Positions 2,506 to 24,089 are shown, numbered from the stretch's first letter. The stretch: DNA of 25,915 nucleotides from Acutalibacteraceae bacterium (GCA_045630505.1 JAZQTE010000333.1:1-25915), one strand, 5' to 3'. Numbers and translations: made by a program. The notes: generated from the letters alone by a model not told the origin.

Positions 2506-2543
2506 AAAGAAGCCTTGGCAACCGCCAAGGCTTTTCTTTTTAT
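2502..2543. terminator. Bidirectional intrinsic terminator between deoR and fucU
   Basis: Stem AAGCCTTGGC (2510-2519), loop AACC, GCCAAGGCTT (2524-2533), with an A-rich run on the left and a T-rich run on the right, between convergent stop codons. Confidence 0.88.
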
Positions 2544-2992
2544 AAATATCCTTTTGCCAGCAGTAGGTTTCCATACTGCTGTTCTTCACCGGTTTGAATG
2601 ATCGCATAGGCACGCTTGGCAGCATCATAAAACTCCTGCCGTCCAAACTTCCCCAACGTGATACCCACGTATTCTTCGGCAATAGTCTTTTCAAAATCGC
2701 CCCATACCGACGGTATAGGCGTACCGCGTTTTTTGTCGCTTTCGGTCAAATCCATCACGATTACGGGTTCCTCCGTGTATTCCACATCCAACGGGAACAG
2801 CGGCAAAATGGCCTCCAACAACGCATTGGTACTCACACCGGGACAATGGATCACGTGGCCTACCACCGTATCCTTGGCATACGCTTCGGCAGGAAAGTTA
2901 CCGTCTGCCAACACCAGCACATCGCTATGCCCCATATCGCACAAGACCTTCAGTACATCCCCCGTAAGAAGTTTACTAATGTTATTCAGCAT
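2540..2992 (-). CDS. fucU: L-fucose mutarotase (RbsD/FucU family, FucU-like)
   Basis: LKVLCDMGHSDVLVLADGNFP, LLEAILPLFPLD and FYDAAKRAYAIIQTGE..YGNLLLAKG match FucU as recalled; no RbsD-type GLPIP motif. Start ATG 2992 lies 7 nt after GGAGG (alternative 2998). Confidence 0.85.
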   Translation of the reverse strand: MLNNISKLLTGDVLKVLCDMGHSDVLVLADGNFPAEAYAKDTVVGHVIHCPGVSTNALLEAILPLFPLDVEYTEEPVIVMDLTESDKKRGTPIPSVWGDFEKTIAEEYVGITLGKFGRQEFYDAAKRAYAIIQTGEEQQYGNLLLAKGYL

Positions 2993-3007
2993 AACCATTC
3001 CTCCTTT

Positions 3008-4081
3008 TTAGGATAAATAGAACGACCGATACCACTCGGCAAAGCGGCGCAAACCCGTTCGCAAATCCGTAGACGGTTTGAATCCGAAATCTTCTTCCAA
3101 CGCACTTACATCCGCATACGTAACAGGAACATCACCTGCTTGCATCGGCACAAGCTTTTTATGCGCTTCAAAATCGTAATCCGAAGGTAACACGCCGGCT
3201 CGAATAAGTTCTTGCTGCAAAATATCCACAAAGTCCAAAAGATTTTCGGGAGAATTGTTCCCAATGTTATATATCTTATACGGCGGAATCGGCAATCCGT
3301 CTTCGCCTTTTTTCTTTTCGGGTGCACACGACATAACGCGTTTTACACCTTCTACGATATCATCAACGTAGGTAAAATCGCGCTTACAGTTACCGTAGTT
3401 GAAAATTTCAATCGTTTCACCGTTGCGCAACTTGTCAGTAAACCCAAAATACGCCATATCCGGGCGTCCTGCCGGCCCGTACACGGTAAAGAATCGAAGG
3501 CCCGTACAAGGAATATTGTACAGTTTTGCATAGGCGTGAGCCATCAGTTCGTTAGATTTCTTGGTTGCCGCATACAACGAAACGGGATTGTCCACCTTGT
3601 CTCCGGTAGAGTACGGCACCTTTTTATTCGTACCGTATACGCTGGAACTGGATGCATACACCAAGTGCTCTACGGGATAAACACGGCAGGTTTCCAGCAA
3701 ATTATAAAAACCAAGAATATTGCTGTGAATATAAGCGTCAGGATTGGTGATGGAATAGCGAACACCGGCTTGCGCTGCCAAATTCACAACAACCGAAAAT
3801 TCATAGTTGTCAAACAGCTCTGCCAACAACGCTTCGTCTGCCAAATCGCCTTTTACGAAACGCCATTCGATACTCGGCTTTTTTGCAACAAGTTTCTCGA
3901 TTTCGGACAAACGATACTCTTTCAAGGAAACATCGTAGTAATCGTTCATATTATCAAGGCCAACAATCGTCACCTTATCCAGCGTCCTTGCCAATTCCAT
4001 CACCAGATTGGCACCGACAAAGCCCGCTGCTCCCGTGACAAGTATCGGTTTCCCGTTCAATTGGATATTTTCTTGTAACAT
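3008..4081 (-). CDS. NAD-dependent epimerase, UDP-glucuronate 4-epimerase type (extended SDR)
   Basis: VTGAAGFVG, VNLAAQAGVRYS, YASSSSVYG, SLYAATKKSNEL (YxxxK), GLRFFTVYGPAGRPDMAYF, RDFTYVDDIVEG, MQAGDVPVTYAD. Confidence 0.88.
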   Translation of the reverse strand: MLQENIQLNGKPILVTGAAGFVGANLVMELARTLDKVTIVGLDNMNDYYDVSLKEYRLSEIEKLVAKKPSIEWRFVKGDLADEALLAELFDNYEFSVVVNLAAQAGVRYSITNPDAYIHSNILGFYNLLETCRVYPVEHLVYASSSSVYGTNKKVPYSTGDKVDNPVSLYAATKKSNELMAHAYAKLYNIPCTGLRFFTVYGPAGRPDMAYFGFTDKLRNGETIEIFNYGNCKRDFTYVDDIVEGVKRVMSCAPEKKKGEDGLPIPPYKIYNIGNNSPENLLDFVDILQQELIRAGVLPSDYDFEAHKKLVPMQAGDVPVTYADVSALEEDFGFKPSTDLRTGLRRFAEWYRSFYLS

Positions 4082-4085
4082 AATA

Positions 4086-7040
4086 TCACCACACCAATTT
4101 GCAATCCCACACGTCTACGGGATTATCTTGGAACACCTTTTTCAGGCGCTTATGTACGTCGTCCTTGCAAACACCTTTTTTCAAAATCGCTTGCAAGAAG
4201 CCGCCGCCGCCTGCACCACAGATCATTTTACCGTCGATCAAATCGTCAATGCTGCTGAAGATCTGATCGATCAACGTGTTGGTGCTGCCGCTGTCTACCA
4301 TATTCGACAGTTCCCAATGGCGGTTCATCAGCCGCGCAAACTCATCCACGTTGCCGCGTTCCAGTTCAAACCGCATCAGCACCGCCATTTTTTGCACCTC
4401 GTTGAGCGCATACAACGAATCGGGCTCGTTGCCCACGTAGCGTCCCACCACGTCACGCAGCAAGTTGCGTGCCAAGCGACGCTGCCCCGTATAGATAAGC
4501 ACGAAGCGTTCGTCCAACTCCTGCTTGGTTTCTTCCGAAAGCTCCACGTGCTGCACCTTCATTTGCTGATACAGCGCAGGGCGGCTGGTGATATATTTCA
4601 CACCGTCGGTCACGCCGCCCACTTGGTCTTGCCAACCGCCGCCCGTGGACATAATTTGCTCCATACACAGCACGTGGCCGTAAAGATCGTCTTCCGTGTG
4701 CGGAATTCCCATAAATTCGAATACCGCTTTCACACACGCCGCAGACAAAATCGAGCTGGTCCCAAGACCGCTGCCCTTAGGCACGTTGGTAACTTCGCTG
4801 TTCATCACAAAGCCGCCGCCCAAACGGGTAAGGATCTCTTTCAAATTCCCGCCCTCTTTAGGCAAGATGCCGCACGCCAGCAAACACGCTTTTTGCAGGG
4901 CGAACGGATCGTACGGGTCGCCCGTACGTTGCAAAGGCTCAATGGTATCAAACTCGCCGTGCACGTCCATATCGCGGCTGTCGAACACGATTTTGAGTTC
5001 GTCAATGCGTTCCATCGTCACCGCAACGGGCTTATCGCCACCCAGCAAGATGGCTGCATTCAGCACGGTACCGCCGTTTTCAATGCAGTACGGCGGCGTA
5101 TCCGACCAACCGCCGCCCCAGTTTACGCGAAGCGGCAATTTCACGGTATGCTTGTCCGTCACGATACGGCAGGTATCGTTGTATTGCAGATTGTCCAGTG
5201 TTGATTTCAAAATGGCACTTTGAATGGTCTTAAAGCATTCTGCCACGTATTTGTCGCCCTCGGTGCCGCCAAGTGCCATACCAATATAGTAATTGAGGCG
5301 CATTGCTTCGCCAAACTCAACGTTTTGCAAGCGCTTCTCCAGCCATTGCTTTTGAATGGATGTGAGTCGGTCGGCATGCAGCATTCCCTTGGCTTCACGC
5401 GCGGGCTTGCCGGCGCGAATGTGTTTAACAACACCGTCCATACGCACCAGCTCTTGCATTCTTTTGTTCCACGCAATAATGGCGTCGGCATCGGCATCGT
5501 TAAAGCCGGCACACAGCGATTTACGTGCAGCGGCTTTCCACGCTGCCAAGTCCCCTGCACCGTGCGCTAATGCATACACGTTCAGTGCGGCAGCCACTGC
5601 TTCCTGCACCGTATCACACACGGGATACAAATTCGCCGTCCACAGCGTGTGATTATCGTTATCCCACAGCTCTTCGACACCGATAAATTCCGTAAGCGGC
5701 TTGCCGAACAAATTACCCTCTTTGGGATTATCGTTCGTTCCGTAAATGCGCGCCACGAACTTGCCGTCTTTCTGTTTCAGCCCGTGCAGCACCACGTTGG
5801 ACGGAATGGTTTCGTTGTGAATATCAATGTACGACAGCACCACGTTATCCCCCACGGTGGCACCGTGGTGCACGTAGGAAACCTCCAAATAAACGTTTTC
5901 ACCCACGGCAGCACGGTCGGAAAGCACACTGTTATACCCTGCCGTGGCTTTACTGATGCTGCTGTTAATATGGTTCTTCCAGCCCAAATCACTGTACGCT
6001 TCCACACCGCCGTTCATCAGCGCCAAGATCTCGCGCGTGGTACCGAAATGAATGAATTTGGCAGGCGCTAAACGCAACAGTTTCATACGGTACGGGCGAA
6101 GCACACGCCACACGTCGGTGCGAGCGGCCTTTAATTCATCGCAGTAATCGCCCTCGGGCTTCTCGTTATAAAATTGCTCCAAGGTAGAATCCGTTGCCAG
6201 CGGATACAGAAAATCTCCGTACAGCGACAAACGCACCGTTTCGTTCACCAAGGCGTCGTATCGCTCATTGGTATCGATCAAGCTATACAGCGAGCGCAGC
6301 ATATCGGCCGAGAAGATCACGGCACCCGTATCGATATCCACACAGCCCTGCGCATTGACAGCACCGCGTTCGGTAAGCGATTCCACCGTTTGCTTGTGCA
6401 AAAATTCACGCACGTTACCGTCTTCCCCACCATTGAATACCCCGTGGTTTTTGCCGGTTTGTACGTCTTCCTTGAAAGAAATGGCCGCCGCACCAACGCC
6501 GCTGTAGTCGATCTGCAGCGGATTGAACAGGAGCAGCACGTCGCCCGACAGCAACAGCATTCCTTCGCGAATGCGGGCAGGCACGGAGCTCATACCGATC
6601 AGCAGTTCGTCAAACAGCGTGGATGCTCGCCCGTTCGGCAGCTCGTGCGGCACGGGAGAAAACAGCTTGCCGAGCGCACTGTACTGCGGCACACGCTTGC
6701 TGTCGCCGCCCGAATGGATCACCAAAATACGCAGCCCTCCGAAATCGGCACTGCCTATCTCGCTCGCCAAATAGCGCAACACGCCTAGCGTCGCACCGCC
6801 GCTACCCACGCGTTTGCCGTCACGATCGGGAACAACCGCAAATTTCGTGTGCAAAGGCAAAAATCCCGCCGCACGGCGTTCTTCGATCTGCGCGCGAAAG
6901 CCTGCCGCTTGCTGCTCGTTAGAAGCCGTAAGCACCACGTAATCCCAACACGCAAACGCTTCCTTCGTGAGCGAACGACAATAATCGTCCCACGTGTCCA
7001 TATACGATTGTGATAAAAACAACGACGTTAAGTTGGTCAT
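4086..7040 (-). CDS. fkp: Bifunctional L-fucokinase / L-fucose-1-phosphate guanylyltransferase (Fkp/FKGP)
   Basis: N-terminal pyrophosphorylase motifs RVGSGGATL, HSGGDSKRVP, SGDVLL, HFGTT, then a short beta-helix-like repeat region. C-terminal GHMP kinase motifs LPLRVNWGGGWSDTPP, PKGSGLGTSS, GGGWQDQVGG, CGAGGGGF. Start ATG 7040 chosen from spacing to AAGGTG (track uses GTG 7049). Confidence 0.9.
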   Translation of the reverse strand: MTNLTSLFLSQSYMDTWDDYCRSLTKEAFACWDYVVLTASNEQQAAGFRAQIEERRAAGFLPLHTKFAVVPDRDGKRVGSGGATLGVLRYLASEIGSADFGGLRILVIHSGGDSKRVPQYSALGKLFSPVPHELPNGRASTLFDELLIGMSSVPARIREGMLLLSGDVLLLFNPLQIDYSGVGAAAISFKEDVQTGKNHGVFNGGEDGNVREFLHKQTVESLTERGAVNAQGCVDIDTGAVIFSADMLRSLYSLIDTNERYDALVNETVRLSLYGDFLYPLATDSTLEQFYNEKPEGDYCDELKAARTDVWRVLRPYRMKLLRLAPAKFIHFGTTREILALMNGGVEAYSDLGWKNHINSSISKATAGYNSVLSDRAAVGENVYLEVSYVHHGATVGDNVVLSYIDIHNETIPSNVVLHGLKQKDGKFVARIYGTNDNPKEGNLFGKPLTEFIGVEELWDNDNHTLWTANLYPVCDTVQEAVAAALNVYALAHGAGDLAAWKAAARKSLCAGFNDADADAIIAWNKRMQELVRMDGVVKHIRAGKPAREAKGMLHADRLTSIQKQWLEKRLQNVEFGEAMRLNYYIGMALGGTEGDKYVAECFKTIQSAILKSTLDNLQYNDTCRIVTDKHTVKLPLRVNWGGGWSDTPPYCIENGGTVLNAAILLGGDKPVAVTMERIDELKIVFDSRDMDVHGEFDTIEPLQRTGDPYDPFALQKACLLACGILPKEGGNLKEILTRLGGGFVMNSEVTNVPKGSGLGTSSILSAACVKAVFEFMGIPHTEDDLYGHVLCMEQIMSTGGGWQDQVGGVTDGVKYITSRPALYQQMKVQHVELSEETKQELDERFVLIYTGQRRLARNLLRDVVGRYVGNEPDSLYALNEVQKMAVLMRFELERGNVDEFARLMNRHWELSNMVDSGSTNTLIDQIFSSIDDLIDGKMICGAGGGGFLQAILKKGVCKDDVHKRLKKVFQDNPVDVWDCKLVW

Positions 7041-7053
7041 ACCATACACCTTT

Positions 7054-7962
7054 TTATTTCAATATTTCTACTTGAGATATATCTAACATTTCCGACAAAA
7101 CACGGTCGGATTCCGGCAAGCGATTTCCGTCCATTCCACCGGCAGGAGTGAATGTCATCTCGCCAAAGTATACCTTATCATCCACCGCATAAAAATCCAT
7201 TCGCACAAACGGAAACGGCTTGGCCAAAATTTCTGCATATCTGAACAAGTCATCTACACACGCCGGCTTTTCGATGTAAAAATCTTCCGGCGCCGCCAAA
7301 CCGTCACGAGTAAGACGGTGTAAGTTCCACTCCTTATCATAAAAATAAAATTTCGGATGCCCACCGTTTTCTCTTCCAACACACAACAACAGAAATGCGG
7401 CTTTCCCGTTTATACAGTACAATTTATAATCGGTTGGTAAAAAGCCTTTTCCATCATTGAGGTATTTTTCGCAAATGATTTTCTTTGGCGCATATTTGTA
7501 TTGCATCTCTGAATGCGGCAACCAAAATTTGACTTTTCCCCATTTTTTAAGTTGCTTGATCGTTTCTTCCTTATTCAACTTGCTTTTGTCATCGCAAATG
7601 ATATTCATCCCTGCGCCAAAATTCCATTTGAGAGCAAATTGTTCAGGCAGTTCCTCCCACGGAATATCTTCTGCGCGATCCCACACACCAATGAGCTCGT
7701 TGAGAATTTCTTCACAACCGCAAGCTTTAACATACTCTCGAACTGCATACTTATCGGCGCATTGGATCACCAACGGATTATGGATATAGTTATTAAGTTT
7801 TAGCCACAAGTTTTTCTCATTAAACGTAACCGGATTTTTAAGATCCAACGGTTTTCCAAAAGCATATTTATACCGCATCTTGGTATTTAACGTGGGAGAT
7901 ATCATCGTTGCGATATGAAAACGCTTGTTCCAAATCTTACTCAAAGTTGTTCGTAAGCTCAC
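7054..7962 (-). CDS. TupA-like ATP-grasp protein
   Basis: PVTFNEKNLWLKL, ADKYAVREYV, LPEQFALKWN, IICEKYL, DYKLYCINGK, FPFVRMDFY, YFGEMTFTPAGG are characteristic of the ATPgrasp_TupA family. GTG start with AAGGGG RBS. Confidence 0.88.
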   Translation of the reverse strand: MSLRTTLSKIWNKRFHIATMISPTLNTKMRYKYAFGKPLDLKNPVTFNEKNLWLKLNNYIHNPLVIQCADKYAVREYVKACGCEEILNELIGVWDRAEDIPWEELPEQFALKWNFGAGMNIICDDKSKLNKEETIKQLKKWGKVKFWLPHSEMQYKYAPKKIICEKYLNDGKGFLPTDYKLYCINGKAAFLLLCVGRENGGHPKFYFYDKEWNLHRLTRDGLAAPEDFYIEKPACVDDLFRYAEILAKPFPFVRMDFYAVDDKVYFGEMTFTPAGGMDGNRLPESDRVLSEMLDISQVEILK

Positions 7963-7975
7963 CGTTTTACACCCC

Positions 7976-9109
7976 TTAATCTCGTTTTTCGCGCAAGCGT
8001 CTGACGGCGCGAGAAATTACCCAATTATTCGTTTCTACAGCATGATTATGATAAACAAAATTATCGTTCACCGTCTGTTTGAAAAATGCCGTTTTCACAA
8101 TCGTTTTGATATAGTCTTTTACCCCTTTAACGACCGTGAGCCCGCACGTGTTAAAAATATACTGTTTAAATGCGCCTCTATACAAATCAAGGCAAAAACG
8201 ATCGACGGTTTCAACGAGTTGATCCTTGTTTTCTTCTTTCAAAACATCACAATAGCCGTTCAATTCTTTTTCGTATTCTTCGTCGTTTTCATTTAATAAC
8301 AATCGGTTATTTTCAACCTTAACAGGAATCACTTCATAAGCTATTTCTGCACCTTCTATGCGCAAACCGACCATCATTGTTTTTAAATCTACAAAAGATT
8401 GCTTGCGTCGCTGCCACAAGAAGTTTCCCAGGCTATAGAAAATCAAACCGTCGCCATAACGTTCCCACCCTTGTACTACGTGTGGGTGATGACCAATTAC
8501 CACATCTACACCGAAATCAATAAAATTCCGATACGCATCCATCCACTCAGGCATCGGGATATGTAGATTTTCCAATCCGCCGTGCGCTAATAGGACAATC
8601 TTATCGCAAACCTTTTTATATTTTCGAATTTGAAGCAGCAACTCTCGTGAAAACAAATGGGCATGGCCGCAACGCTTTTGCGCATCCGCTGTACCAAAAC
8701 TGTTTTCAGCCGCTGAAAATAATGCGACCGTTACTCCGTCAGCATTGAAAACATAGGGTTCATAGGCGTTCTTTTCACCACAGCTTGCACCGATAACCGA
8801 ACCGCCCATCGACTCCAGGTTTCGCACGGTTGTATTCAGCGCTTTTTCGCCGAAATCCAAGATATGATTGTTCGCCAAACCAAACACGTCAAACCCCAGC
8901 TGCTTCACAACCGTATAGCTTTCATCACTTTGCAACAACAGCGGTCCTGCCTTTGGAGCGGGAGAACTTTTCTCAATATCCCCCGCTGCCCCCTCAAAGT
9001 TGCATACACGAATATCATATTCTTTAAACTTTTCGACGATCTCCGGTGACAATGCAAGCTGTCCATCACCTTGTACAGCAACATCGCCAACAAATAACAT
9101 GTTAAGCAT
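7976..9109 (-). CDS. CapA/PGA_cap family metallophosphoesterase-fold protein, no N-terminal membrane anchor
   Basis: FVGDV, CNFEG, LANNHILDFG, AHGGLE, VIGHHPHVVQG, YSLGNF. Start overlaps the wzx stop. Confidence 0.85.
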   Translation of the reverse strand: MLNMLFVGDVAVQGDGQLALSPEIVEKFKEYDIRVCNFEGAAGDIEKSSPAPKAGPLLLQSDESYTVVKQLGFDVFGLANNHILDFGEKALNTTVRNLESMGGSVIGASCGEKNAYEPYVFNADGVTVALFSAAENSFGTADAQKRCGHAHLFSRELLLQIRKYKKVCDKIVLLAHGGLENLHIPMPEWMDAYRNFIDFGVDVVIGHHPHVVQGWERYGDGLIFYSLGNFLWQRRKQSFVDLKTMMVGLRIEGAEIAYEVIPVKVENNRLLLNENDEEYEKELNGYCDVLKEENKDQLVETVDRFCLDLYRGAFKQYIFNTCGLTVVKGVKDYIKTIVKTAFFKQTVNDNFVYHNHAVETNNWVISRAVRRLREKRD

Positions 9110-10424
9110 TTTCTTTCTTCTTTCGTTTTACAAAGTTTTTCAATTCTTCAATACTGATTTTCCAAGAACGGAAATATAACCCAATAAACGAACGCGTTTC
9201 TTTAAAAAAGGCCGGTGCAATGAACGCCGTGGTGATTTGTGAAATTAACGTCGCGAAAGCCGCACCATTCATACCAAACAAAGGAATAAGAATACTGTTC
9301 AACAGAATGTTAACAATAGAAGAAATGAACACATAATACTTTGAATATTTGTTAAGGTTTTCTGCCAAAATCCACGTACTACCGCGCGCTGAACCAATCA
9401 TGGCAAAGCCCGTACTCCACATCAATATTGTAAGCGGCACATATGCTACCATATACTCTTGACCGTATAGTATGAAAATGGCCAATTTTCCGAAAATCAA
9501 CAACGCAATGCACACTATCACACTCATTGCCGAAACGCCGCAAAGCAACAGTGAAAGTAATCTGGTGTATTCTTTTTCGTCTTTTCCCTTTTTCTCCAAA
9601 ATCAGCACTTTGGCGGAATTGATGATAGCCGTAGGAACAAACTCCCACAAAGTTGCAATCATCGTTGCCGCCGTATAATATCCCACGGCTTTTGAATCCA
9701 TCATGGAACCCAGCATTATTTTATCCACTTGTGTATACAAAGCGATCGCAATGCCCGAAAGAATAAAATGATAGCTTTGCTTAAAGATTCTTTGGGCGGT
9801 ATTAAATTTAAAAGTTAATTTTGTACGATACCGTTTTAAAAAGAAAATAACAACAACCGCACTACTGACCAAATATTCTACGCAGGAAGATGCCGCAAAC
9901 CATTCAACTCCCACTCCGTTTGCCAAGAGTGCAATACGCCATATACACACGAAGGTGTATCCCACCATAGAAGCAATCGATATGAATTTGTATTCCAGTT
10001 TTGCTTGAAACCAATAAGAAACTGCTTCAAACGCACGAAGAACAAGCGCAAACGACTGTAAAAAAGTGACAATATACAACGTGGTGTTTCCCGGCTCGAT
10101 AACACGCAACAAGCCGGCGATCATCCCCATACACACCATTGAGGAGATCAACCGCATTACAAAAGCAGTACCAATAATCTCGCCGCGCTCATCCGGCTTT
10201 TGAATGAGTTCCTTAACAACGACACCGTTCATACCCAAAGTGGAAAAACTCACAAACAGCGAAACCATCGACTGCCCGTAGCCAATCAATCCGTAATTAG
10301 ACGGGCCTAAATACCTTGCGGTGATAGCACCAACCACAAGGGATAACAGCATCGTATAAATTTGATTGGCAACTTGCCAACCGGTACTCCCCAAAAATCG
10401 CCCAAGCGAATTTTTTTTCAACAA
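9102..10424 (-). CDS. wzx: Wzx flippase (MOP superfamily oligosaccharide exporter)
   Basis: Many hydrophobic segments; ARYLGPSNYG, DKIMLGSM, VGYYTAA, LIPLFGMNGAAFATLIS. TTG start with GAAGGT RBS. Confidence 0.9.
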   Translation of the reverse strand: MLKKNSLGRFLGSTGWQVANQIYTMLLSLVVGAITARYLGPSNYGLIGYGQSMVSLFVSFSTLGMNGVVVKELIQKPDERGEIIGTAFVMRLISSMVCMGMIAGLLRVIEPGNTTLYIVTFLQSFALVLRAFEAVSYWFQAKLEYKFISIASMVGYTFVCIWRIALLANGVGVEWFAASSCVEYLVSSAVVVIFFLKRYRTKLTFKFNTAQRIFKQSYHFILSGIAIALYTQVDKIMLGSMMDSKAVGYYTAATMIATLWEFVPTAIINSAKVLILEKKGKDEKEYTRLLSLLLCGVSAMSVIVCIALLIFGKLAIFILYGQEYMVAYVPLTILMWSTGFAMIGSARGSTWILAENLNKYSKYYVFISSIVNILLNSILIPLFGMNGAAFATLISQITTAFIAPAFFKETRSFIGLYFRSWKISIEELKNFVKRKKKENA

Positions 10425-11383: not shown

Positions 11384-12616
11384 TCACTCTGCTTCTTGTC
11401 GTTCACGATCAGCCGTCACGAAAAGGAACAACGGAATAGCAAAGCCTAATTCAAACGACCAAAAAGTGGGGTTTAAAATCTGTAGAATAATAACCATAGC
11501 GAAAGACAAAACGGCAACGTATCCGACCACGGTTCTTTGGGATAATGTACGATACCATTTCCAAAGGCAACCGCCTAAGGCGCAAACAATGGCCAAGCCC
11601 ACCAATCCCCACCTAGCTAACAAGTCCATAAAGAAAGAGTGTCCTCCGCCCTTTTCGGAAGCAAAGAATGACGTACCCAGTATCGGATTTTCCAAAAATG
11701 AATTCCAAGACGCTAAATACATATTCCGTCGCAGCTCGGTATCCTCGCCGACAGTTTCTTTGCCTTGCAGCATATTGGCAATGTCGGCAATTTTTTCTGC
11801 CGAACCTTCCAAAATCGGCCACTCGGATATCCAATTTAATATCGCAGGCAAAAACACGAAAACAATTATTAAAAATAAAACAATAAAGCCTATGCGGCGC
11901 TTTACCGTCTGTAAGCTACCCTGCGAAGGAAAAAAATAGACAATACAAGAAACAAGGAACAACAGTGCCGCCGTGGCAAATTCGCTTTCCACAACACACA
12001 AACCGCTAATAACCGTAACGACAACCGCCGGCAAAGTTTTATTCATCTTGCGCAAAAAGAACACAAAAAAAGGATGAAGCAAAACCAAAGAATAGATAAA
12101 CCCAAAGCCGCCGATGTTATAAGGATAATACAAATTAAACAACGCGGGCTCTGCCGTCATCGCACGGCTGGCTTGCGGAAAGAAAAGTGTTCCTATGTAA
12201 GTAGTAGCCGCCGTAATCGTATACGCTATAATCATTCCCCAGATCAGACGCGTCATCACTCGTTCGTTTTTTCGGATAATCACAAGATATCCCGATAATA
12301 ACGCCAACCCGCAAAGGAAAACATCCCAAAGTGCATAAAAGGGATCGCCGTTTTTAATCACCAACAGCTCTGCCGCCAACAGTAATAAATAGCATATCAC
12401 CGGAACGATCAGGATCGGCACCTTGTTCGCTTGGATTCGGCTTCCTAAAAACAGGAGGATAAACAAGCAGACCAAAAGTGCCATAGCAATATACGTACTG
12501 CAATAGTACGCAAAAATCGGTACCGTTTTCCAAAAAATATAAAAAAGCAATAATAAGCTTAACATCCAGTCCGATGGAATGCTCTTTCGCTTTTTAATAC
12601 CTTTTTGCAACTCCAT
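11384..12616 (-). CDS. wzy: Wzy polymerase / O-antigen ligase family membrane protein
   Basis: About 10-11 hydrophobic segments, a large late loop (RRNMYLASW.SFLENPILG) and GGHSFFMDLLARWGLVG. Polymerase versus ligase cannot be distinguished from sequence alone. Confidence 0.7.
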   Translation of the reverse strand: MELQKGIKKRKSIPSDWMLSLLLLFYIFWKTVPIFAYYCSTYIAMALLVCLFILLFLGSRIQANKVPILIVPVICYLLLLAAELLVIKNGDPFYALWDVFLCGLALLSGYLVIIRKNERVMTRLIWGMIIAYTITAATTYIGTLFFPQASRAMTAEPALFNLYYPYNIGGFGFIYSLVLLHPFFVFFLRKMNKTLPAVVVTVISGLCVVESEFATAALLFLVSCIVYFFPSQGSLQTVKRRIGFIVLFLIIVFVFLPAILNWISEWPILEGSAEKIADIANMLQGKETVGEDTELRRNMYLASWNSFLENPILGTSFFASEKGGGHSFFMDLLARWGLVGLAIVCALGGCLWKWYRTLSQRTVVGYVAVLSFAMVIILQILNPTFWSFELGFAIPLFLFVTADRERQEAE

Positions 12617-13921: not shown

Positions 13922-14503
13922 TCATTCTTCGATCTTCTTAATAAACTTAGCCGGATTTCCGGCCCAAATTTCGCCGTCGGGCACATCCTTCGTCACAACC
14001 GAACCGGCACCAACCACGCTGTGCTTTCCAATCGTCACGCCTTTGAGAATGATGGAGAACGCTCCGATGAAAGCACCGTCTTTGATCTCTATCGGCTTAT
14101 TGACTGCATTGCGGTCGCCGTTTTCGATACGGTCACTAAATGAAACGGCATGGAAATCCGTATCATAAATACGGCAACTGCCGCCAATACGCACGTCCTC
14201 ACCGATTGTCACCCGTTCACGGGAAACAATGGTGCAGTTAGACAAGCCGCTGCGGTCACCAATGGTAATCACGCCGTTATGCGACGTGTTCAAGATCGCT
14301 CGCGTGTCACCGCCGATCTGATTCGAACGGCGGCAAGAGTTAATGGTCACTCCGTTGCCAATAGCAAGGGTACCTTTTCCGCAAACATAGATTTTACCGT
14401 TGATCCGCACGTTTTTCCCCACGTGAGCCTTGCGGAGTTTTAACACAATAGAATTGTACAAAAAATCAAAACCATATAACAATTTAACGATCAATGTTTT
14501 CAT
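13922..14503 (-). CDS. Hexapeptide-repeat acyltransferase (maltose/galactoside O-acetyltransferase-like)
   Basis: Left-handed beta-helix repeats, IYDTDFH, IGAFSIILKGVTIGKHSVVGAGSVVTKDVP..EIWAGNPAKFIK. ATG 14503 overlaps the upstream TAA (TAATG). Confidence 0.9.
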   Translation of the reverse strand: MKTLIVKLLYGFDFLYNSIVLKLRKAHVGKNVRINGKIYVCGKGTLAIGNGVTINSCRRSNQIGGDTRAILNTSHNGVITIGDRSGLSNCTIVSRERVTIGEDVRIGGSCRIYDTDFHAVSFSDRIENGDRNAVNKPIEIKDGAFIGAFSIILKGVTIGKHSVVGAGSVVTKDVPDGEIWAGNPAKFIKKIEE

Positions 14504-15408
14504 TAAAGCTCCACACCTTTTTGTAAACAAGCGCGTATCGCATCCGTGTATTTTTCGGGAATTGTATCTTCAACTTCAATTTCGAAAGCCGCATCACTTT
14601 CCGTTAGAATCTTCTCTTTAATTTGATTGGTATAACAAATGGTGTTTTGACGGCCCAAATACCGTGCCCACATAGAAAACGACGATCCGCTTGCAATAAA
14701 CAGCGGCGCTTTAGATAAAGCAATAATATCACTGATCGCATTGCCAAACGTCTTTCTCTGCACGCTTTCCATCGACAGCAAGGGGGCTAACTCTTCGTCC
14801 GTCCCGTCTGAAAACACGTAGGCGGGTACCGTTACCCCACAGATAGCACGCACCTGCTTTAGCATCTCACAATACCATGTGATGGGTAATCGACTGTCGT
14901 GCTTTCCTGCTTTAAGTTCCGCCTCCGTTGCTTTTCCGAAATCGCCTAGCCGTACGTGCAGTAAAAGCGCACCCGCAGCATCAAATTGCAATACCGTTTT
15001 ATCACAAATGTTCGCATATAATGCTTCGCGAAGTTCTGCGTGTGCTTCACGGATCGGTTCAAAGGAACCAATAAACTTTTCAAATACCACAATGCCGTTT
15101 TCGGGGCATTGTTCTGCCATGCTCTCGTCAACTTTTTTGTGTGTCAGCAAAAGCCAAACTTTTTTAAAACCGCCAATCGCTCCGCCAGCATTGCGGAACA
15201 GCCCGATGTAATGACGTTTATCCGCTTCGCGGCGCAAATACGGGCCGATCTTAAGAGAAGGCCACGTAGGCCAGATTACACGACAACCGTTCTTCTTCGC
15301 ATAATCAAGCGCACGCCCGTATGCGAATAACAAATTCCCCAGACCGGCCCCACCTAATCGTATAAAAAACAAGTCTTTGGAAGATAACTTGGGATAAACA
15401 TATTTCAT
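14503..15408 (-). CDS. GT11-like (alpha-1,2-fucosyltransferase-related) GDP-sugar glycosyltransferase
   Basis: GLGNLLF (GT11 GLGNQxF), LHVRLGDF (HxRRGD-like), YVFSDG, and D...LS....I.SGSSFSMWA.YLG (NSTFSWW-like). Start ATG 15408 (alternative TTG 15417). Confidence 0.7.
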   Translation of the reverse strand: MKYVYPKLSSKDLFFIRLGGAGLGNLLFAYGRALDYAKKNGCRVIWPTWPSLKIGPYLRREADKRHYIGLFRNAGGAIGGFKKVWLLLTHKKVDESMAEQCPENGIVVFEKFIGSFEPIREAHAELREALYANICDKTVLQFDAAGALLLHVRLGDFGKATEAELKAGKHDSRLPITWYCEMLKQVRAICGVTVPAYVFSDGTDEELAPLLSMESVQRKTFGNAISDIIALSKAPLFIASGSSFSMWARYLGRQNTICYTNQIKEKILTESDAAFEIEVEDTIPEKYTDAIRACLQKGVEL

Positions 15409-15413
15409 AACGT

Positions 15414-16217
15414 TCAATCCTTTTCCGCCGTTCGTTTTGCAAATCTTTTAAGTTGGTTCCAAACCGACCGTAATTTGAGCCCCCAAGGAGCAGCCATAAA
15501 CGCAAAGTTCAATTTGTAAAACGGATTACTGACCGAACGCTTGGAAAACACGGTTCTCAGTGTCGGCTTTTTATAACCCGTCGTCGCTTCGTTTACACCG
15601 TAACGTACCGTATCGGTGCAGTAAATGACAAAACCCTTTTTGTGGGCACGAATCGTCCACTCATAATCAGACAAATAGTGAGGCAACAGCACGGGATGAA
15701 AACCACCGATCTTCATCCAATCGCTCACACGAAAAAATAAGCTGCGCGTGGAAGCGCAATTTGCTTCCGCTTGCGGTGTCGATATTCTCTCTGCCACCAC
15801 GGCAGGGAAGCGAAAATCCACCGCACCATCCACTTGTTCACCCGTTTGGATGCTCACACCGTATCCCGTAAGCAACGTGTTCGGTTTATCCTTTAGCACC
15901 GACAACGCGGTTTCTAAATACGCCGTATCCCATACCACGTCATCATTGGTGAGCATTACGTAATCGTTAACGTTAACATCGGCTTGTTTAACCCATTGAT
16001 AGGCCTTGTGCAGAGCACCGCCCCACCACAAATTGCCGTTTCCTTGCAGGATAACAGCATCGGGTAAAGCCGCCTTCACCATATCCGCCGTACCGTCGGT
16101 AGATCCGTCGTCCACCATCACCAAGCGAATATCTTGGTAGAACTGTGCCTTGAGTTGTTCAACAAATTTCTCGGTGATCGCTTTGCGATTATGTACCGCT
16201 GTGACGATATACAGCAC
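15414..16217 (-). CDS. Glycosyltransferase family 2
   Basis: IVTAVHNRK, VMVDDGSTDGT, GNGNLWWGG, MLTNDD, HYLSDYEW. GTG start with GGGGAAGG RBS. Confidence 0.9.
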   Translation of the reverse strand: MLYIVTAVHNRKAITEKFVEQLKAQFYQDIRLVMVDDGSTDGTADMVKAALPDAVILQGNGNLWWGGALHKAYQWVKQADVNVNDYVMLTNDDVVWDTAYLETALSVLKDKPNTLLTGYGVSIQTGEQVDGAVDFRFPAVVAERISTPQAEANCASTRSLFFRVSDWMKIGGFHPVLLPHYLSDYEWTIRAHKKGFVIYCTDTVRYGVNEATTGYKKPTLRTVFSKRSVSNPFYKLNFAFMAAPWGLKLRSVWNQLKRFAKRTAEKD

Positions 16218-19871: not shown

Positions 19872-21068
19872 TCATTGAATATCAATCGTTATCTCTTTCA
19901 GTGCACCTTCACACACCGCTACCGCCTTTTCGGCCGTGCATGCCTGTGCAATCACAAAACCGAGCCGTGCGCCGCTGCTTGTAATCTCGGTAACCGTTTC
20001 TCCAACACCGTGTACGATACTGATCTGCCGAACGCCGTCTATACGTTCTGCTGCATCCACACCGTCAATGTTCTCTACCGTACCGGCAGTTTGCTCAAAA
20101 TACCGAATGGCACTTCCCCGTTTGAATTTGGGAGTGATTTCGGGCTTTTCACCCAATGCGATACGAATGCAACATCCCACCATGTCCACACCGGTGGACA
20201 GCGGAACCAAATGCGTGGTAATACAATCCCCACCCAATCGTGCACCGAGTTCTACAATCTTGGGACCTTCTTCGGTAACGATGATTTCCGTATGCGAAGG
20301 ACCGTTTGTGATTCCTACCGCGCGATTAGCCGCCTCGGCGATCCATTTGATTCGTTCTACCGTGCGCGAGCAAAGCTGCGTTGGCTGCGAATGCCCCATC
20401 TCAACAAAATGAGGGGCTCCCGTTGTCAGTTTATCCGTGATCTGAATGATATGGCACTCGCCGTCTACCGTCAGCGTTTCCACGCTCACTTCCGGCCCGC
20501 GCATATACTCTTCCACCACTACGTCGCCGCTACGCGAATAGGTGCGGCTGTATTCGTACGCCTTTTCCACGGCATCGGTATCGGTAATATCTTCTACCAA
20601 AAAAATACCGCGACTCCCCGAATTATCTGCCGGCTTCACCACAAACGCCGTCTTAAACTGTTTCGCCGCCATGCGGTATTCTTCCAAACACGAAACTTTA
20701 AAAAACTGCGGAATCGGTACACCATGCTCAAGAAGCGCTTGGCGCATAGCGGCTTTGTTAGTAGCTTTAAACGCTGTTTCTTCGCTAACGCCAACCAATC
20801 CCAGTTCCCGTGCCACTACTGCTACCGTACGCATCGGCATATCACTTGCCAACGTCATAACGCCATCAATTTCGTGACGTTTGGCAGCTTCCAGCACGGC
20901 CGGAATATCAATGGTGCTGATTACCTCTTTTTCAATGTCGCTTTCCGCAAAGCCCACGGCATCGGGATCCATATCCACAGCAACCACCCGAATCCCCATT
21001 TCTTTCGCCTTGCGAATGGCAGGGAGTTGCAGAATGCTTGCCCCTAAAATCATCAGCTTTTTAGTCAT
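19872..21068 (-). CDS. ATP-grasp domain ligase (carboxylate-amine ligase / L-amino-acid ligase-like)
   Basis: ILGASILQLPAI, NKAAMRQAL, VVKPADNSGSRGI, VVEEYMRGPEVSVE, HTEIIVTEEGPKIVELGARLGGD, and a C-terminal LAL-type domain (GARLGFVIA). Confidence 0.88.
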   Translation of the reverse strand: MTKKLMILGASILQLPAIRKAKEMGIRVVAVDMDPDAVGFAESDIEKEVISTIDIPAVLEAAKRHEIDGVMTLASDMPMRTVAVVARELGLVGVSEETAFKATNKAAMRQALLEHGVPIPQFFKVSCLEEYRMAAKQFKTAFVVKPADNSGSRGIFLVEDITDTDAVEKAYEYSRTYSRSGDVVVEEYMRGPEVSVETLTVDGECHIIQITDKLTTGAPHFVEMGHSQPTQLCSRTVERIKWIAEAANRAVGITNGPSHTEIIVTEEGPKIVELGARLGGDCITTHLVPLSTGVDMVGCCIRIALGEKPEITPKFKRGSAIRYFEQTAGTVENIDGVDAAERIDGVRQISIVHGVGETVTEITSSGARLGFVIAQACTAEKAVAVCEGALKEITIDIQ

Positions 21069-22137
21069 TAAGTGTCCTCACAATTTCATCACCGATATAC
21101 TGCATATCCTGCGGTGTGTATCGCTGATCACACGGAGCCGCCAGCATATATCGTTCTGTTTTATAAGCCGTTTCACACAGCACTCTTTTGCTTTCGTTCA
21201 GCGGCCAGATCACGGTGCAAAAAACACCTTTTTGAGCCAACTTTTTTTGAACCTCATCGCGCCGCTCGGTATAAAAAGGCACATACAGATCACTGACACC
21301 GACATCTTTCTGTATGAAAGAAACCCCTTTTTTTCTCAACTTTTCCATTAGAACTGCGGCGTTTTCGGCACGACATCTGCGGATAGCTTCCCAATCAATT
21401 TGCCGAGTCAACGACAACGAGTACAATGACATACCGCAAGGTTTTTCATCGCCATCAATACGGTCGGTAACTGTAGCGAACACCCTCCGATATCGTTCCT
21501 TAAGCGATACATCACCCGTTTCAAAGAACTGTTTTCGCATTGCTTGTGCTTCCAATCGTTCTTTGGCAAAGGAAATATCTTTTGAAAACTCATCAAACTC
21601 GGATGGATCCTTCGCCCATAACAAGCCCCCATCCGCAATGGCAGCCCACTTTCGCAGGCTGGCCACTGTATAATCCGGGCAAAAAGGAGAACTGCTCGGT
21701 TGCAACAGCGTATGGGTTCTGTCGTACACGAACTTCATAGCGGGATACGTTTTTTTAAGCCACTGCAAATCGGCATCTTCAAAAGCGCGATTCCCGAAAT
21801 AATCCATATATAGCAAAATCAATTCGGCTTCATCGCCGCGAATCTGCGCCGTTATACTATCAATATCCGCCGAATAATCCGGCTGCAAACGGTAGTAACG
21901 AATTTCTCGTCCGTAAAACTCAAACGGATCGCTCATAGAAGAGCAAGACAACGCAGGCATCAATATCACTGCGGCGTGTTTTCGTGCAATACACTTGAAA
22001 GCGTCACGTCCGCTTCTAAGTAAAAGGAGTCCCGCGTCTTTTTCAGTACGAGTTACCGTGTTTTCTTCACACGATGCCCATAAAAACGCGTTAGGTGCAG
22101 CATCGTATTCATAACCGTATTCCCTAACGACACTCAT
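21061..22137 (-). CDS. Atypical DegT/DnrJ-like PLP-fold protein of unknown function
   Basis: REYGYEY, SGRDAF, MPALSC, YMDYFG, YDRTH, SLRKW...DGG (candidate PLP lysine), C-terminal PCDQRYTPQDM. Start is one of GTG 22146, GTG 22140 or ATG 22137. Confidence 0.65.
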   Translation of the reverse strand: MSVVREYGYEYDAAPNAFLWASCEENTVTRTEKDAGLLLLRSGRDAFKCIARKHAAVILMPALSCSSMSDPFEFYGREIRYYRLQPDYSADIDSITAQIRGDEAELILLYMDYFGNRAFEDADLQWLKKTYPAMKFVYDRTHTLLQPSSSPFCPDYTVASLRKWAAIADGGLLWAKDPSEFDEFSKDISFAKERLEAQAMRKQFFETGDVSLKERYRRVFATVTDRIDGDEKPCGMSLYSLSLTRQIDWEAIRRCRAENAAVLMEKLRKKGVSFIQKDVGVSDLYVPFYTERRDEVQKKLAQKGVFCTVIWPLNESKRVLCETAYKTERYMLAAPCDQRYTPQDMQYIGDEIVRTLND

Positions 22138-22150
22138 CACACTCACACCT

Positions 22151-22786
22151 TTATTGGTTTAACATTTCTGCTTGCTTTACAGCTTCATCTTCGTTCGTTG
22201 TATCTTTATACACATTTTCGCTTTTCAGTACCGAAACCACGGTTTTAAATAAGATTTTCACATCCATCACCAACGTGCAGTTTTGAGCATAAAAAGCATC
22301 GCCCTGCATTTTTTGCTCTCCGTCAGCACCGTTGCGGTAATACGCTTGGCTATATCCCGTAATGCCCGGTCGCACGGTTAAAAAGACTTTAATATCTTCG
22401 GGATAGCGCTCTAACCAATCGGGGGGATCGGGACGCGGGCCAATCAAACTCATTGAACCGTTCAGCACGTTCAAAAACTGCGGCAATTCATCTAAACTGG
22501 TCTTTCTCATAAACCGACCGATCGGCGTTACACGCGGATCATCTTCGCCATTATATGTAGAACCGTCGGCCAAACGGATATCCGGTGCGTTCACGTACAT
22601 GCTGCGAAATTTATACATCTTGAAAAGCTTGCCGTTTTTGCCGATGCGCTCTGCATTGTAAAACACCGGCCCCTTATCGGTAAAATGAATGATCGGCGCC
22701 AACACCACAAACACCAACGCAAAAATCGGCAACCCAACCAAGCATATCAAAAGATCAAACAGCCGTTTAAAAACCTTCTTGTACAT
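22151..22786 (-). CDS. Initiating phosphoglycosyl (undecaprenyl-phosphate sugar) transferase, small PglC/WcfS-like
   Basis: FKRLFD plus one hydrophobic segment, MYKFRSM, DDPRVTPIGRFMRKTSLDELPQFLNVL.GSMSLIGPRP, RPGITGYSQ. Start ATG 22786 after AAGGGG. Confidence 0.92.
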   Translation of the reverse strand: MYKKVFKRLFDLLICLVGLPIFALVFVVLAPIIHFTDKGPVFYNAERIGKNGKLFKMYKFRSMYVNAPDIRLADGSTYNGEDDPRVTPIGRFMRKTSLDELPQFLNVLNGSMSLIGPRPDPPDWLERYPEDIKVFLTVRPGITGYSQAYYRNGADGEQKMQGDAFYAQNCTLVMDVKILFKTVVSVLKSENVYKDTTNEDEAVKQAEMLNQ

Positions 22787-22797
22787 AACCAAGCCCC

Positions 22798-24018
22798 TTA
22801 ACGAATATACTCTCTCACAATTGCCGTATAGCACTCGATCACGTAGGCCACGTCCTCGTCCGTCAGACGAGTATGAAGCGGGAGGGTAATCTCGTTCACA
22901 TACTGTGCGTAGGCATTCGGGAACTGCTGAATATCAAAGCCCAGTTTTTTGTACGCCGTGTGCATCGGCAACGGTTTGTAATGCACGTTGCACGCCACAC
23001 CGCGTTCGGCCATTTTCACGATGATCTCGTTGCGCTGTTCCTCGGTAATGCCCGGCACGCGCGTGATATACAAATGCCCCGACGACGTATGTTCGCCCGT
23101 ATAATGCGGCAGCGTTTGCACGCCCAGCGGTTTCAATGCCGCATCGTACCGTTCGATGATCTCACGGCGGCGAGCCAGCATAGCGGGATAACGGCGGAAC
23201 TGCGCCAAACCCATAGCGGCGGCCACATCTGTCATATTACACTTATACCACGTGCCGATTATGTCGTATTCCCACGCACCGAGCTTTGTTTTTGCCAACG
23301 CATCTTTATTTTGACCGTGCAGCGACAGCAGCTGCACACGGCGATAGATTTCCTCGCTGTCGATTCCGTCGATGGGGCGCCACGTCAGTGCGCCGCCTTC
23401 CGCCGTTGTTAAATTCTTTACGGCGTGGAAACTGAAGCTGGAAAAATCCGCCATATTGCCACACATCACGTTGCCGCGTTTTGCGCCAAAGGCGTGCGCC
23501 GTATCCGCCAGTACCACCACACGGCCGATCGCCTTTTGCCACTCGGTTTTCGGAGTGAACAAGCGGCGTTTTCTCTCTACCGCTGCAAAAATGCGATCGT
23601 AATCACACGGAATGCCTGCGATGTCCACGGGAATGATGGCTTTGGTTTTTTCGGTAATGGCGGCTTCCATTGCCTCGTAATCCATTTCCAAGCTTTGGGA
23701 TTGGGTATCCACTAAAACAAGGGTAGCCCCCACATGGCAAACCACCGATGCAGAGGCCGTATAGGTATAGGCAGGGACGATCACTTCGTCACCCTCGCCG
23801 ATTCCCAGTAAGCGAAGGGCCATTTCGGCACACGCCGTTTGGGAGTTTAAGCAGCACGCTTTATCCGTCCCCACGTATGCGGCGACATTTCGTTCCAGTT
23901 CTTTGGTTTTCGGTCCGGTCGTGATCCAACCCGAACGCAACGCCTCCGCTACCTCAGATATTTCTTCTTCGGAAATATCCGGCGGCGAAAACGGGATATT
24001 TCGTTTTACTTCATCCAT
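22798..24018 (-). CDS. DegT/DnrJ/EryC1/StrS sugar aminotransferase, resembling the pneumococcal AATGal aminotransferase
   Basis: NIPFSPPDI, SGWITTGPKTKELE, DTAHA, FSFHAVKNLTTAEGG (PLP Lys), LSLHGQNKDALAK, YKCNMTD, NVHYKPLP. Start ATG 24018 or TTG 24027 (better RBS spacing). Confidence 0.92.
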   Translation of the reverse strand: MDEVKRNIPFSPPDISEEEISEVAEALRSGWITTGPKTKELERNVAAYVGTDKACCLNSQTACAEMALRLLGIGEGDEVIVPAYTYTASASVVCHVGATLVLVDTQSQSLEMDYEAMEAAITEKTKAIIPVDIAGIPCDYDRIFAAVERKRRLFTPKTEWQKAIGRVVVLADTAHAFGAKRGNVMCGNMADFSSFSFHAVKNLTTAEGGALTWRPIDGIDSEEIYRRVQLLSLHGQNKDALAKTKLGAWEYDIIGTWYKCNMTDVAAAMGLAQFRRYPAMLARRREIIERYDAALKPLGVQTLPHYTGEHTSSGHLYITRVPGITEEQRNEIIVKMAERGVACNVHYKPLPMHTAYKKLGFDIQQFPNAYAQYVNEITLPLHTRLTDEDVAYVIECYTAIVREYIR

Positions 24019-24089
24019 ACCGTTCAACCCGATTACCCCTCTTCTTCCCCAAAACACGCAAACAGTAGGCGCACTTATAATTAATATAT

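Follow-up and report, generated by a model that had tools for sequence, protein, structure and literature searches.

TupA proteins take their name from the synthesis of teichuronopeptide, the product with which the protein from Bacillus halodurans is associated. For another TupA-like ATP-grasp domain, the C-terminal domain of Cj1438 from Campylobacter jejuni, the reaction has been described. The C6 carboxyl group of glucuronic acid is amidated with serinol phosphate or ethanolamine phosphate, and the HAD enzyme Cj1435 then strips the phosphate from the product (PMC11800379). CapA proteins are known from poly-gamma-glutamate (PGA) synthesis, in which they are the membrane-bound components of the PgsBCA/CapBCA systems. 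The closest characterized relative of the CapA protein analyzed here is MslH (PDB 8GQ9), which epimerizes the C-terminal Trp of a lasso peptide. MslH is a metal-dependent epimerase that acts at a C-alpha atom beside a free carboxylate; its catalytic dyads are His88/Asp91 and His295/Asp11, and calcium is bound by Glu44, Asn87, His259, and His261 (PMC10406935). The discoverers of MslH suggested that CapA, too, has epimerase activity (PMC8179263). Among the largely open-access papers searched, none on the biochemistry of PgsA was found. A polysaccharide of relevance is the O-antigen of E. coli O110, in which D-allothreonine is amide-linked to galacturonic acid (GalA) (PMC7685785).

The window, i.e., the whole stretch of 25,915 nucleotides that was analyzed, is one complete contig from an Acutalibacteraceae bacterium whose genome comprises 1.97 Mb and is 86% complete. 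Parts of the window recur in metagenomes from cattle and pig gut. It contains twenty minus-strand genes from argS to fucU, most of which overlap or are separated by gaps within about 20 bp. The operon encodes a DegT aminotransferase, a priming transferase, an ATP-grasp protein, seven glycosyltransferase-like proteins, an acetyltransferase, Wzy, Wzx, CapA, TupA, Fkp, an epimerase, and FucU. The tupA-like gene (7054..7962, minus strand; 302 aa, GTG start at 7962, stop at 7054) and the capA gene (7976..9109, minus strand; 377 aa, ATG start at 9109) are separated by exactly 13 bp, as the initial annotation had stated, and capA overlaps the stop of the flippase gene wzx (9102..10424, minus strand; PF13440/PF01943) by 8 bp. 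A contig from an independent bovine-gut run spans the tupA-capA junction (7802-8094, 1 difference), and therefore, the junction is not an assembly artefact. One RNA contig also matched tupA; as it may stem from DNA, it was not taken as a sign of transcription. The probable Wzy polymerase gene (11384..12616, minus strand) encodes a hydrophobic membrane-protein sequence with a weak PF04932 match under the cut-off, and its presence marks the locus as Wzx/Wzy-dependent.

The epimerase gene (3008..4081, minus strand; PF01370, best PDB match 5u4q with an E value of 2e-106) has the same orientation as the pair, with 4-bp gaps on either side of the intervening fkp gene (4086-7049, minus strand; bifunctional fucokinase/GDP-fucose pyrophosphorylase). 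Its product is 51% identical to the NAD-dependent epimerase adjoining ugd in the E. coli O110 locus and fits a UDP-glucuronate 4-epimerase, in line with the earlier assignment of a UDP-glucuronate epimerase to the same operon. GalA, which this enzyme would provide, is the likely acceptor sugar. Despite the uronate epimerase, the 86%-complete genome yielded no UDP-glucose dehydrogenase gene (PF03721 over the cut-off), which leaves the supply of uronic acid documented only in part; the gene may lie in the missing 14%. The block wzx-capA-tupA (7054-10424) has the lowest G+C content of the locus (0.41-0.43, GC3 0.42-0.45) and may therefore have been acquired as a cassette; the values of argS and fkp are 0.54-0.56 (GC3 0.64-0.65). 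The same operon also holds a route from fucose salvage to the surface, made up of fucU (2540-2998, minus strand), fkp, and a GT11-like gene (14503-15417, minus strand); of these, fucU and fkp are kept in the relative locus L001. At the other end of the operon (19872-24057, minus strand), genes for a DegT aminotransferase, a priming phosphoglycosyl transferase, a PLP-like ORF of 361 aa (21061-22146, minus strand), and a second ATP-grasp protein of the LAL_C2 type (19872..21068, minus strand; PF13535/PF18603) probably serve to make an N-acylated amino sugar.

The tupA product matched PF14305 with 136.8 bits (cut-off 25, E value 1e-39) over profile positions 5-239 of 241. Six residues, K112, E165, D178, K180, D256, and E268, were invariant among 43 relatives, and the protein has no sequence relative in the PDB. 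With the Cj1438 domain it shares the TupA-like ATP-grasp fold class, a capsule-type locus, a tailoring partner, and the expected amidation of a uronic acid at C6. In contrast to the Cj1438 domain, which is fused to a GT2 domain, the TupA of the window is a stand-alone protein, its partner is of the CapA type instead of the HAD type, and its locus is of the Wzx/Wzy type. Unlike in the Cj1438/Cj1435 route, neither a PLP-type gene for phospho-amine supply nor an HAD phosphatase gene was found beside the tupA-capA pair. The B. halodurans protein is likened to it by membership in PF14305 alone, and the window gives no sign of a glutamate chain. The precedent of Cj1438 makes it most likely that TupA amidates a uronic-acid carboxyl, as the initial annotation had suggested, and the amino group of an amino acid is predicted to be linked to the C6 carboxyl.

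The capA product matched PF09587 with 159.4 bits (cut-off 27, E value 1.5e-46), and the motifs GD, NxE, NNHxxD, HxGxE, and GHHPH were present and invariant. With PgsA/CapA of PgsBCA/CapBCA it has in common this domain, the full motif set, and the logic of a ligase plus a CapA protein, and it is about 33% identical to CapA of B. anthracis over the catalytic part. However, it differs by the lack of a membrane anchor, an extra C-terminal tail, and an ATP-grasp partner. The N-terminus is MLNMLFVGDV, and the highest 19-residue hydropathy window is only 0.98, so a transmembrane or signal segment is lacking. In the AlphaFold2 model (pLDDT 96.4), the strand 2-12 comes first and a helical tail comprises residues 292-376, which agrees with the initial description of a protein that starts at its first strand and carries an additional helical tail. 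PgsB/CapB (TIGR04012) and CapC (PF14102) were neither present in the window nor found in the 86%-complete genome. Together with the missing anchor, this is in accordance with the earlier view that the pair is not a PGA synthase. An HMM of the tail recognized only close relatives and was unusable as a classifier.

MslH was the only sequence relative of CapA in the PDB, and it was also far ahead in the fold comparison (Foldseek E value 4e-17; VIA Z score 33, rmsd 2.6 over 285 residues), whereas the next entries, YmdB among them, had Z scores of 17.6 or less. The alignment covered residues 1-291 of the model and thus left the tail outside. The MslH residues Asp11, Glu44, Asn87, His88, Asp91, His259, and His295 correspond to D9, E39, N81, H82, D85, H176, and H210 of CapA. 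Both His/Asp dyads are therefore kept (H82/D85 and H210/D9), as are three of the four metal ligands (E39, N81, and H176), while His261 is replaced by Gly178; the invariant E180 or H208 may take its place. The residues D9, E39, N81, H82, D85, H176, H208, and H210 were invariant in 88 anchorless homologues. The catalytic residues were equally invariant in 43 anchored homologues, and hence they show an intact site and do not identify the substrate. The two proteins share the fold and the absence of an N-terminal anchor, and the substrate class proposed for CapA is likewise a C-alpha atom beside a free carboxylate. In contrast, the identity is only 17-25%, the helical tail is specific for CapA, the score with the MslH equivalog NF038314 was 48.7 bits and thus below the cut-off of 700, and the neighbors of capA are polysaccharide genes instead of a lasso-peptide cluster. 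CapA is a member of neither MslH nor CapBCA, but it probably works like MslH.

To describe the neighborhoods of related genes, 164 loci were grouped by whether the CapA N-terminus carries an anchor (90 without, 43 with, and the remainder unclear), and ligase distances were counted only in loci of 6 kb or more. An amide ligase was encoded within two genes of an anchorless CapA in 52 of 67 loci, among polysaccharide loci in 43 of 45, versus 0 of 35 for anchored CapA. These and the following statistics describe this sample only, since the loci served to build the ligase HMMs and include related ones that are not independent: a ligase directly adjoined an anchorless CapA in 36 of 54 loci, versus 13.0 expected and a maximum of 25 in 10,000 shuffles, while the GT4 control was not enriched (14 of 39 versus 11.8 expected, p 0.26). 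The linkage is thus stronger than expected by chance. The nearest ligase was AsnB-like in 17 cases, CapK-like in 13, RimK-like in 12, TupA in 7, and ATPgrasp_ST in 3. As the ligase family varies, the conserved unit is a ligase plus CapA. The AsnB-like neighbors at distance 1 all lacked the N-terminal (glutaminase) Cys, and they therefore probably ligate an amine other than ammonia. Such cysteine-less proteins beside an anchorless CapA were seen in L005, L086, L087, L089, L090, L091, L094, L098, and L119, and they are candidates for a further family of glycan amino-acid ligases.

In a tree of CapA proteins made with a quick method, the ligase partner switched several times: the label of a TupA partner needed 6 changes, at least 4 of them forced, and the CapA of the window grouped with AsnB- and CapK-partnered proteins. 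The block wzx-capA-tupA was found in the same order in L001, L198, L199, and L200, and the CapA identities in these relatives were 65, 65, 50, and 39%. Seen from TupA, however, the partnership is optional: capA was near tupA in 1 of 11 loci in the family and in about 10 of the 52 tupA-bearing genomes of the class, the latter being a floor. The linkage of the two genes that the initial annotation had emphasized is kept in relatives, but it is not specific for TupA, as at least five ligase families are involved. The closest TupA relatives without an adjoining capA sit by AlaDh/PNT or octopine-dehydrogenase genes, and the gene beside TupA thus tends to encode an amino-acid tailoring enzyme. In L201, L262, L263, L264, L012, L111, L187, L203, and L204, genes of these two types are neighbors of a TupA or a RimK-like ligase gene, and a CapA is often encoded there as well; the dehydrogenases may make N-(1-carboxyethyl) amino acids with stereocentres possibly set by CapA. 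Mutual exclusion of opine dehydrogenases and CapA as partners was considered and ruled out, as 3 of 4 AlaDh-type loci also carry CapA. In L262, which has two TupA genes, a short Asp/Glu racemase-like fragment (4353-4691) directly follows capA.

E. coli serogroup loci, located via published primers, allowed a comparison with known structures. When E. coli genomes were searched at the DNA level with the capA of a Vibrio, the single match was a chance one. The O110 cluster comprises three GT4 genes, wzx, wzy, an ATP-grasp gene, and a gene for an anchorless CapA that shares the catalytic residues of the window protein; PLP or HAD genes were not found in it. The ATP-grasp protein and CapA are the only products of the cluster that are not needed for the sugar backbone. 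Of 5,426 complete E. coli genomes, just 2 carry this capA, and both are O110. L-threonine and D-allothreonine differ in configuration at C-alpha only. The co-occurrence of a D-allothreonine amide with an ATP-grasp protein and CapA as the only extra products is indirect, correlative support for an amide ligase and a C-alpha epimerase. Published work that was searched contained no role for the O110 CapA. The O110 cluster has in common with the window that wzx adjoins an anchorless, tailed CapA, that the ligase is an ATP-grasp enzyme, and that a UDP-uronate epimerase is encoded nearby. In contrast, the O110 ligase is RimK-like instead of TupA-like, and its CapA is 27% identical to that of the window and belongs to another branch of the tree.

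The other serogroups differed in composition. The O167 locus (L-alanine) has a ligase and no CapA, and the O91 cluster (glycine) has neither an annotated ligase nor CapA, which makes it uninformative for this comparison. The O143 locus encodes a PLP enzyme, an HAD enzyme, and a TupA ligase, again without CapA; we take its O-antigen to be that of S. boydii 8 and hence to carry a serinol amide. In O46/O134, TupA is present and CapA was found neither in the cluster nor on the chromosome. As these O-antigens were first published as bearing D-allothreonine, O46/O134 is a possible counterexample to CapA-dependent D-allothreonine formation; a later corrigendum reportedly changed the residue to L-threonine. 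O63 contains N-acetyl-D-allothreonine in another linkage and lacks CapA, showing that other routes exist. O110 is the only ligase-plus-CapA locus with a positive chemotype.

Taken together, the tupA-capA pair is most likely an optional tailoring cassette of a Wzx/Wzy surface polysaccharide. CapA is read as an epimerase because MslH is far ahead by fold and is the sole solved sequence relative, and because the dyads are kept. Our main reading, to which we assign a probability of about 0.6, is that a uronic acid is amidated with an L-amino acid and that the amide is then epimerized by CapA. By family precedent, TupA would use ATP in the cytoplasm to activate the C6 carboxyl of the uronic acid, probably GalA, and would couple it to an L-amino acid via the amino group of the latter, whose alpha-carboxylate stays free in the resulting amide. 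Fold, residues, and gene context suggest that the metal site of CapA would then bind this carboxylate and that the C-alpha proton would be exchanged between the dyads His82/Asp85 and His210/Asp9, as in MslH at the peptide C-terminus, yielding a D-amino-acid amide. Wzx would flip the finished unit. The substrate of epimerization may be a UDP-sugar, a lipid-linked unit, or a free amino acid before ligation.

The initial annotation had viewed CapA as a metallophosphoesterase that may process an intermediate. In its most concrete form, TupA would ligate a phosphorylated amine (e.g., serinol phosphate or ethanolamine phosphate) and CapA would strip the phosphate, as Cj1435 does. The fold is calcineurin-like, with YmdB and 5'-nucleotidases following MslH in the fold search, the Cj1438/Cj1435 route is real, and the window contains the PLP-like ORF. 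The invariant H208-x-H210 of CapA resembles the His175/His177 motif of YmdB when mapped by sequence, and given this motif a two-metal hydrolase site is still conceivable. However, the residue after the metal-binding Glu is Gly40 instead of the YmdB ligand Asn40, which is missing from MslH as well, and by the same mapping homologues mostly have A, C, G, or S at this position. In addition, the phosphatase step, where known or expected (Cj1435, O143), is assigned to an HAD enzyme, and O143 combines PLP, HAD, and TupA without CapA. Homologues of the O143 PLP or HAD enzymes occurred in 0 of 67 anchorless-CapA loci in a search that detects only O143-like enzymes, the O110 cluster has neither gene, and the PLP-like ORF is gone from the relative L270, which keeps capA-tupA. 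As the nearest characterized relative is moreover an epimerase with conserved dyads, this function has become unlikely. The removal or editing of the decoration by CapA as an amidohydrolase would agree with a mostly hydrolytic fold and with the constant company of an amide-forming enzyme, but O110 keeps its amide though CapA is present, and the searches turned up no characterized amidase of the CapA family; this is the least probable of all explanations and hardly to be expected.

Other alternatives retain epimerization and change its substrate. The order of steps is not given by the gene context, and TupA relatives also adjoin AlaDh/PNT and octopine-dehydrogenase genes, which are expected to act on free amino acids. 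CapA might thus act ahead of ligation and racemize the free amino acid (or a derivative of the opine type), of which TupA would then take the D-form. Yet the substrate of MslH is an N-acylated residue, and free amino acids are usually racemized by PLP or two-cysteine enzymes, which makes this order rather unlikely. It is improbable that CapA epimerizes an aminoacyl group put by the second ATP-grasp protein on the DegT-made amino sugar. D- and L-aspartyl amino sugars are known (PMC10609480), and the gene is kept in the two closest relatives, L269 and L270, but capA is about 11 kb away from this second ATP-grasp gene, compared with 13 bp for tupA, and wzx-capA-tupA persists in L199 and L200, whose incomplete contigs show no such ATP-grasp gene. 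An oligo-glutamate chain that resembles teichuronopeptide and is built on the uronic acid, with D-Glu introduced by CapA as has been proposed for PGA (PMC8179263), would suit the origin of the TupA name. Nevertheless, the enterobacterial loci with such ligases that were checked all carry a single amino acid or amine, and with capB and capC found neither in the window nor in the 86%-complete genome this chain is very improbable.

Both folds and both chemistries are already known, and their combination on a polysaccharide did not turn up in the papers searched. The initial statement that such a pair lacks biochemical characterization still holds for the pair itself, but not for its halves, each of which has a characterized relative (Cj1438 and MslH). 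The literature searched, most of it open access, contained no description of CapA as an epimerase of glycan-bound amino acids, nor did the search yield an account of the origin of rare D-forms such as D-allothreonine. If CapA is an epimerase, the chemistry of MslH would be extended from peptides to glycans, a common misannotation would be corrected, and a two-gene signature would predict the handedness of an amino acid from sequence alone. We give a little better than even odds to a broader view, namely that anchorless CapA proteins are a large class of predicted glycan-bound amino-acid epimerases, which provide a general post-ligation route to D-amino acids in capsules and O-antigens, including the D-allothreonine of O110, and which were recruited repeatedly beside at least five amide-ligase families in bacteria and archaea. 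If this is true, thousands of annotations as "poly-gamma-glutamate synthesis protein" are wrong. A ligase plus CapA would account for the rare D-allothreonine of E. coli O110, and the CapA of the window would be a soluble, tractable protein with which to probe whether the membrane-bound PGA enzyme is an epimerase, as has been proposed. The charge and the immunospecificity of surface glycans depend in part on amino-acid amides of uronic acids.

Several further loci were noted. The genome of the window encodes a second anchorless CapA (L272:2377-3468) between an HAD hydrolase gene and a PF02578 gene; a ligase or polysaccharide gene was not found on its 7.8-kb contig, and this position outside a polysaccharide locus speaks against the main reading. 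In E. coli S40 (O91), the region L268:9563-11290 is without wzx and most glycosyltransferase genes in comparison with L271 and looks like a deletion. The O110 strain E. coli L6-21 has its ATP-grasp gene split into two ORFs (L194:11530-12524), whereas the gene is intact in L197, and the strain is predicted to be a natural mutant without the threonine amide. Mixta theicola carries an O110-like cluster (L273:3618-11498) with the gene order GT4, GT4, RimK-like ligase, wzx, capA, an unannotated gene at the wzy position, and GT4, and by analogy its product is predicted to carry a D-amino-acid amide.
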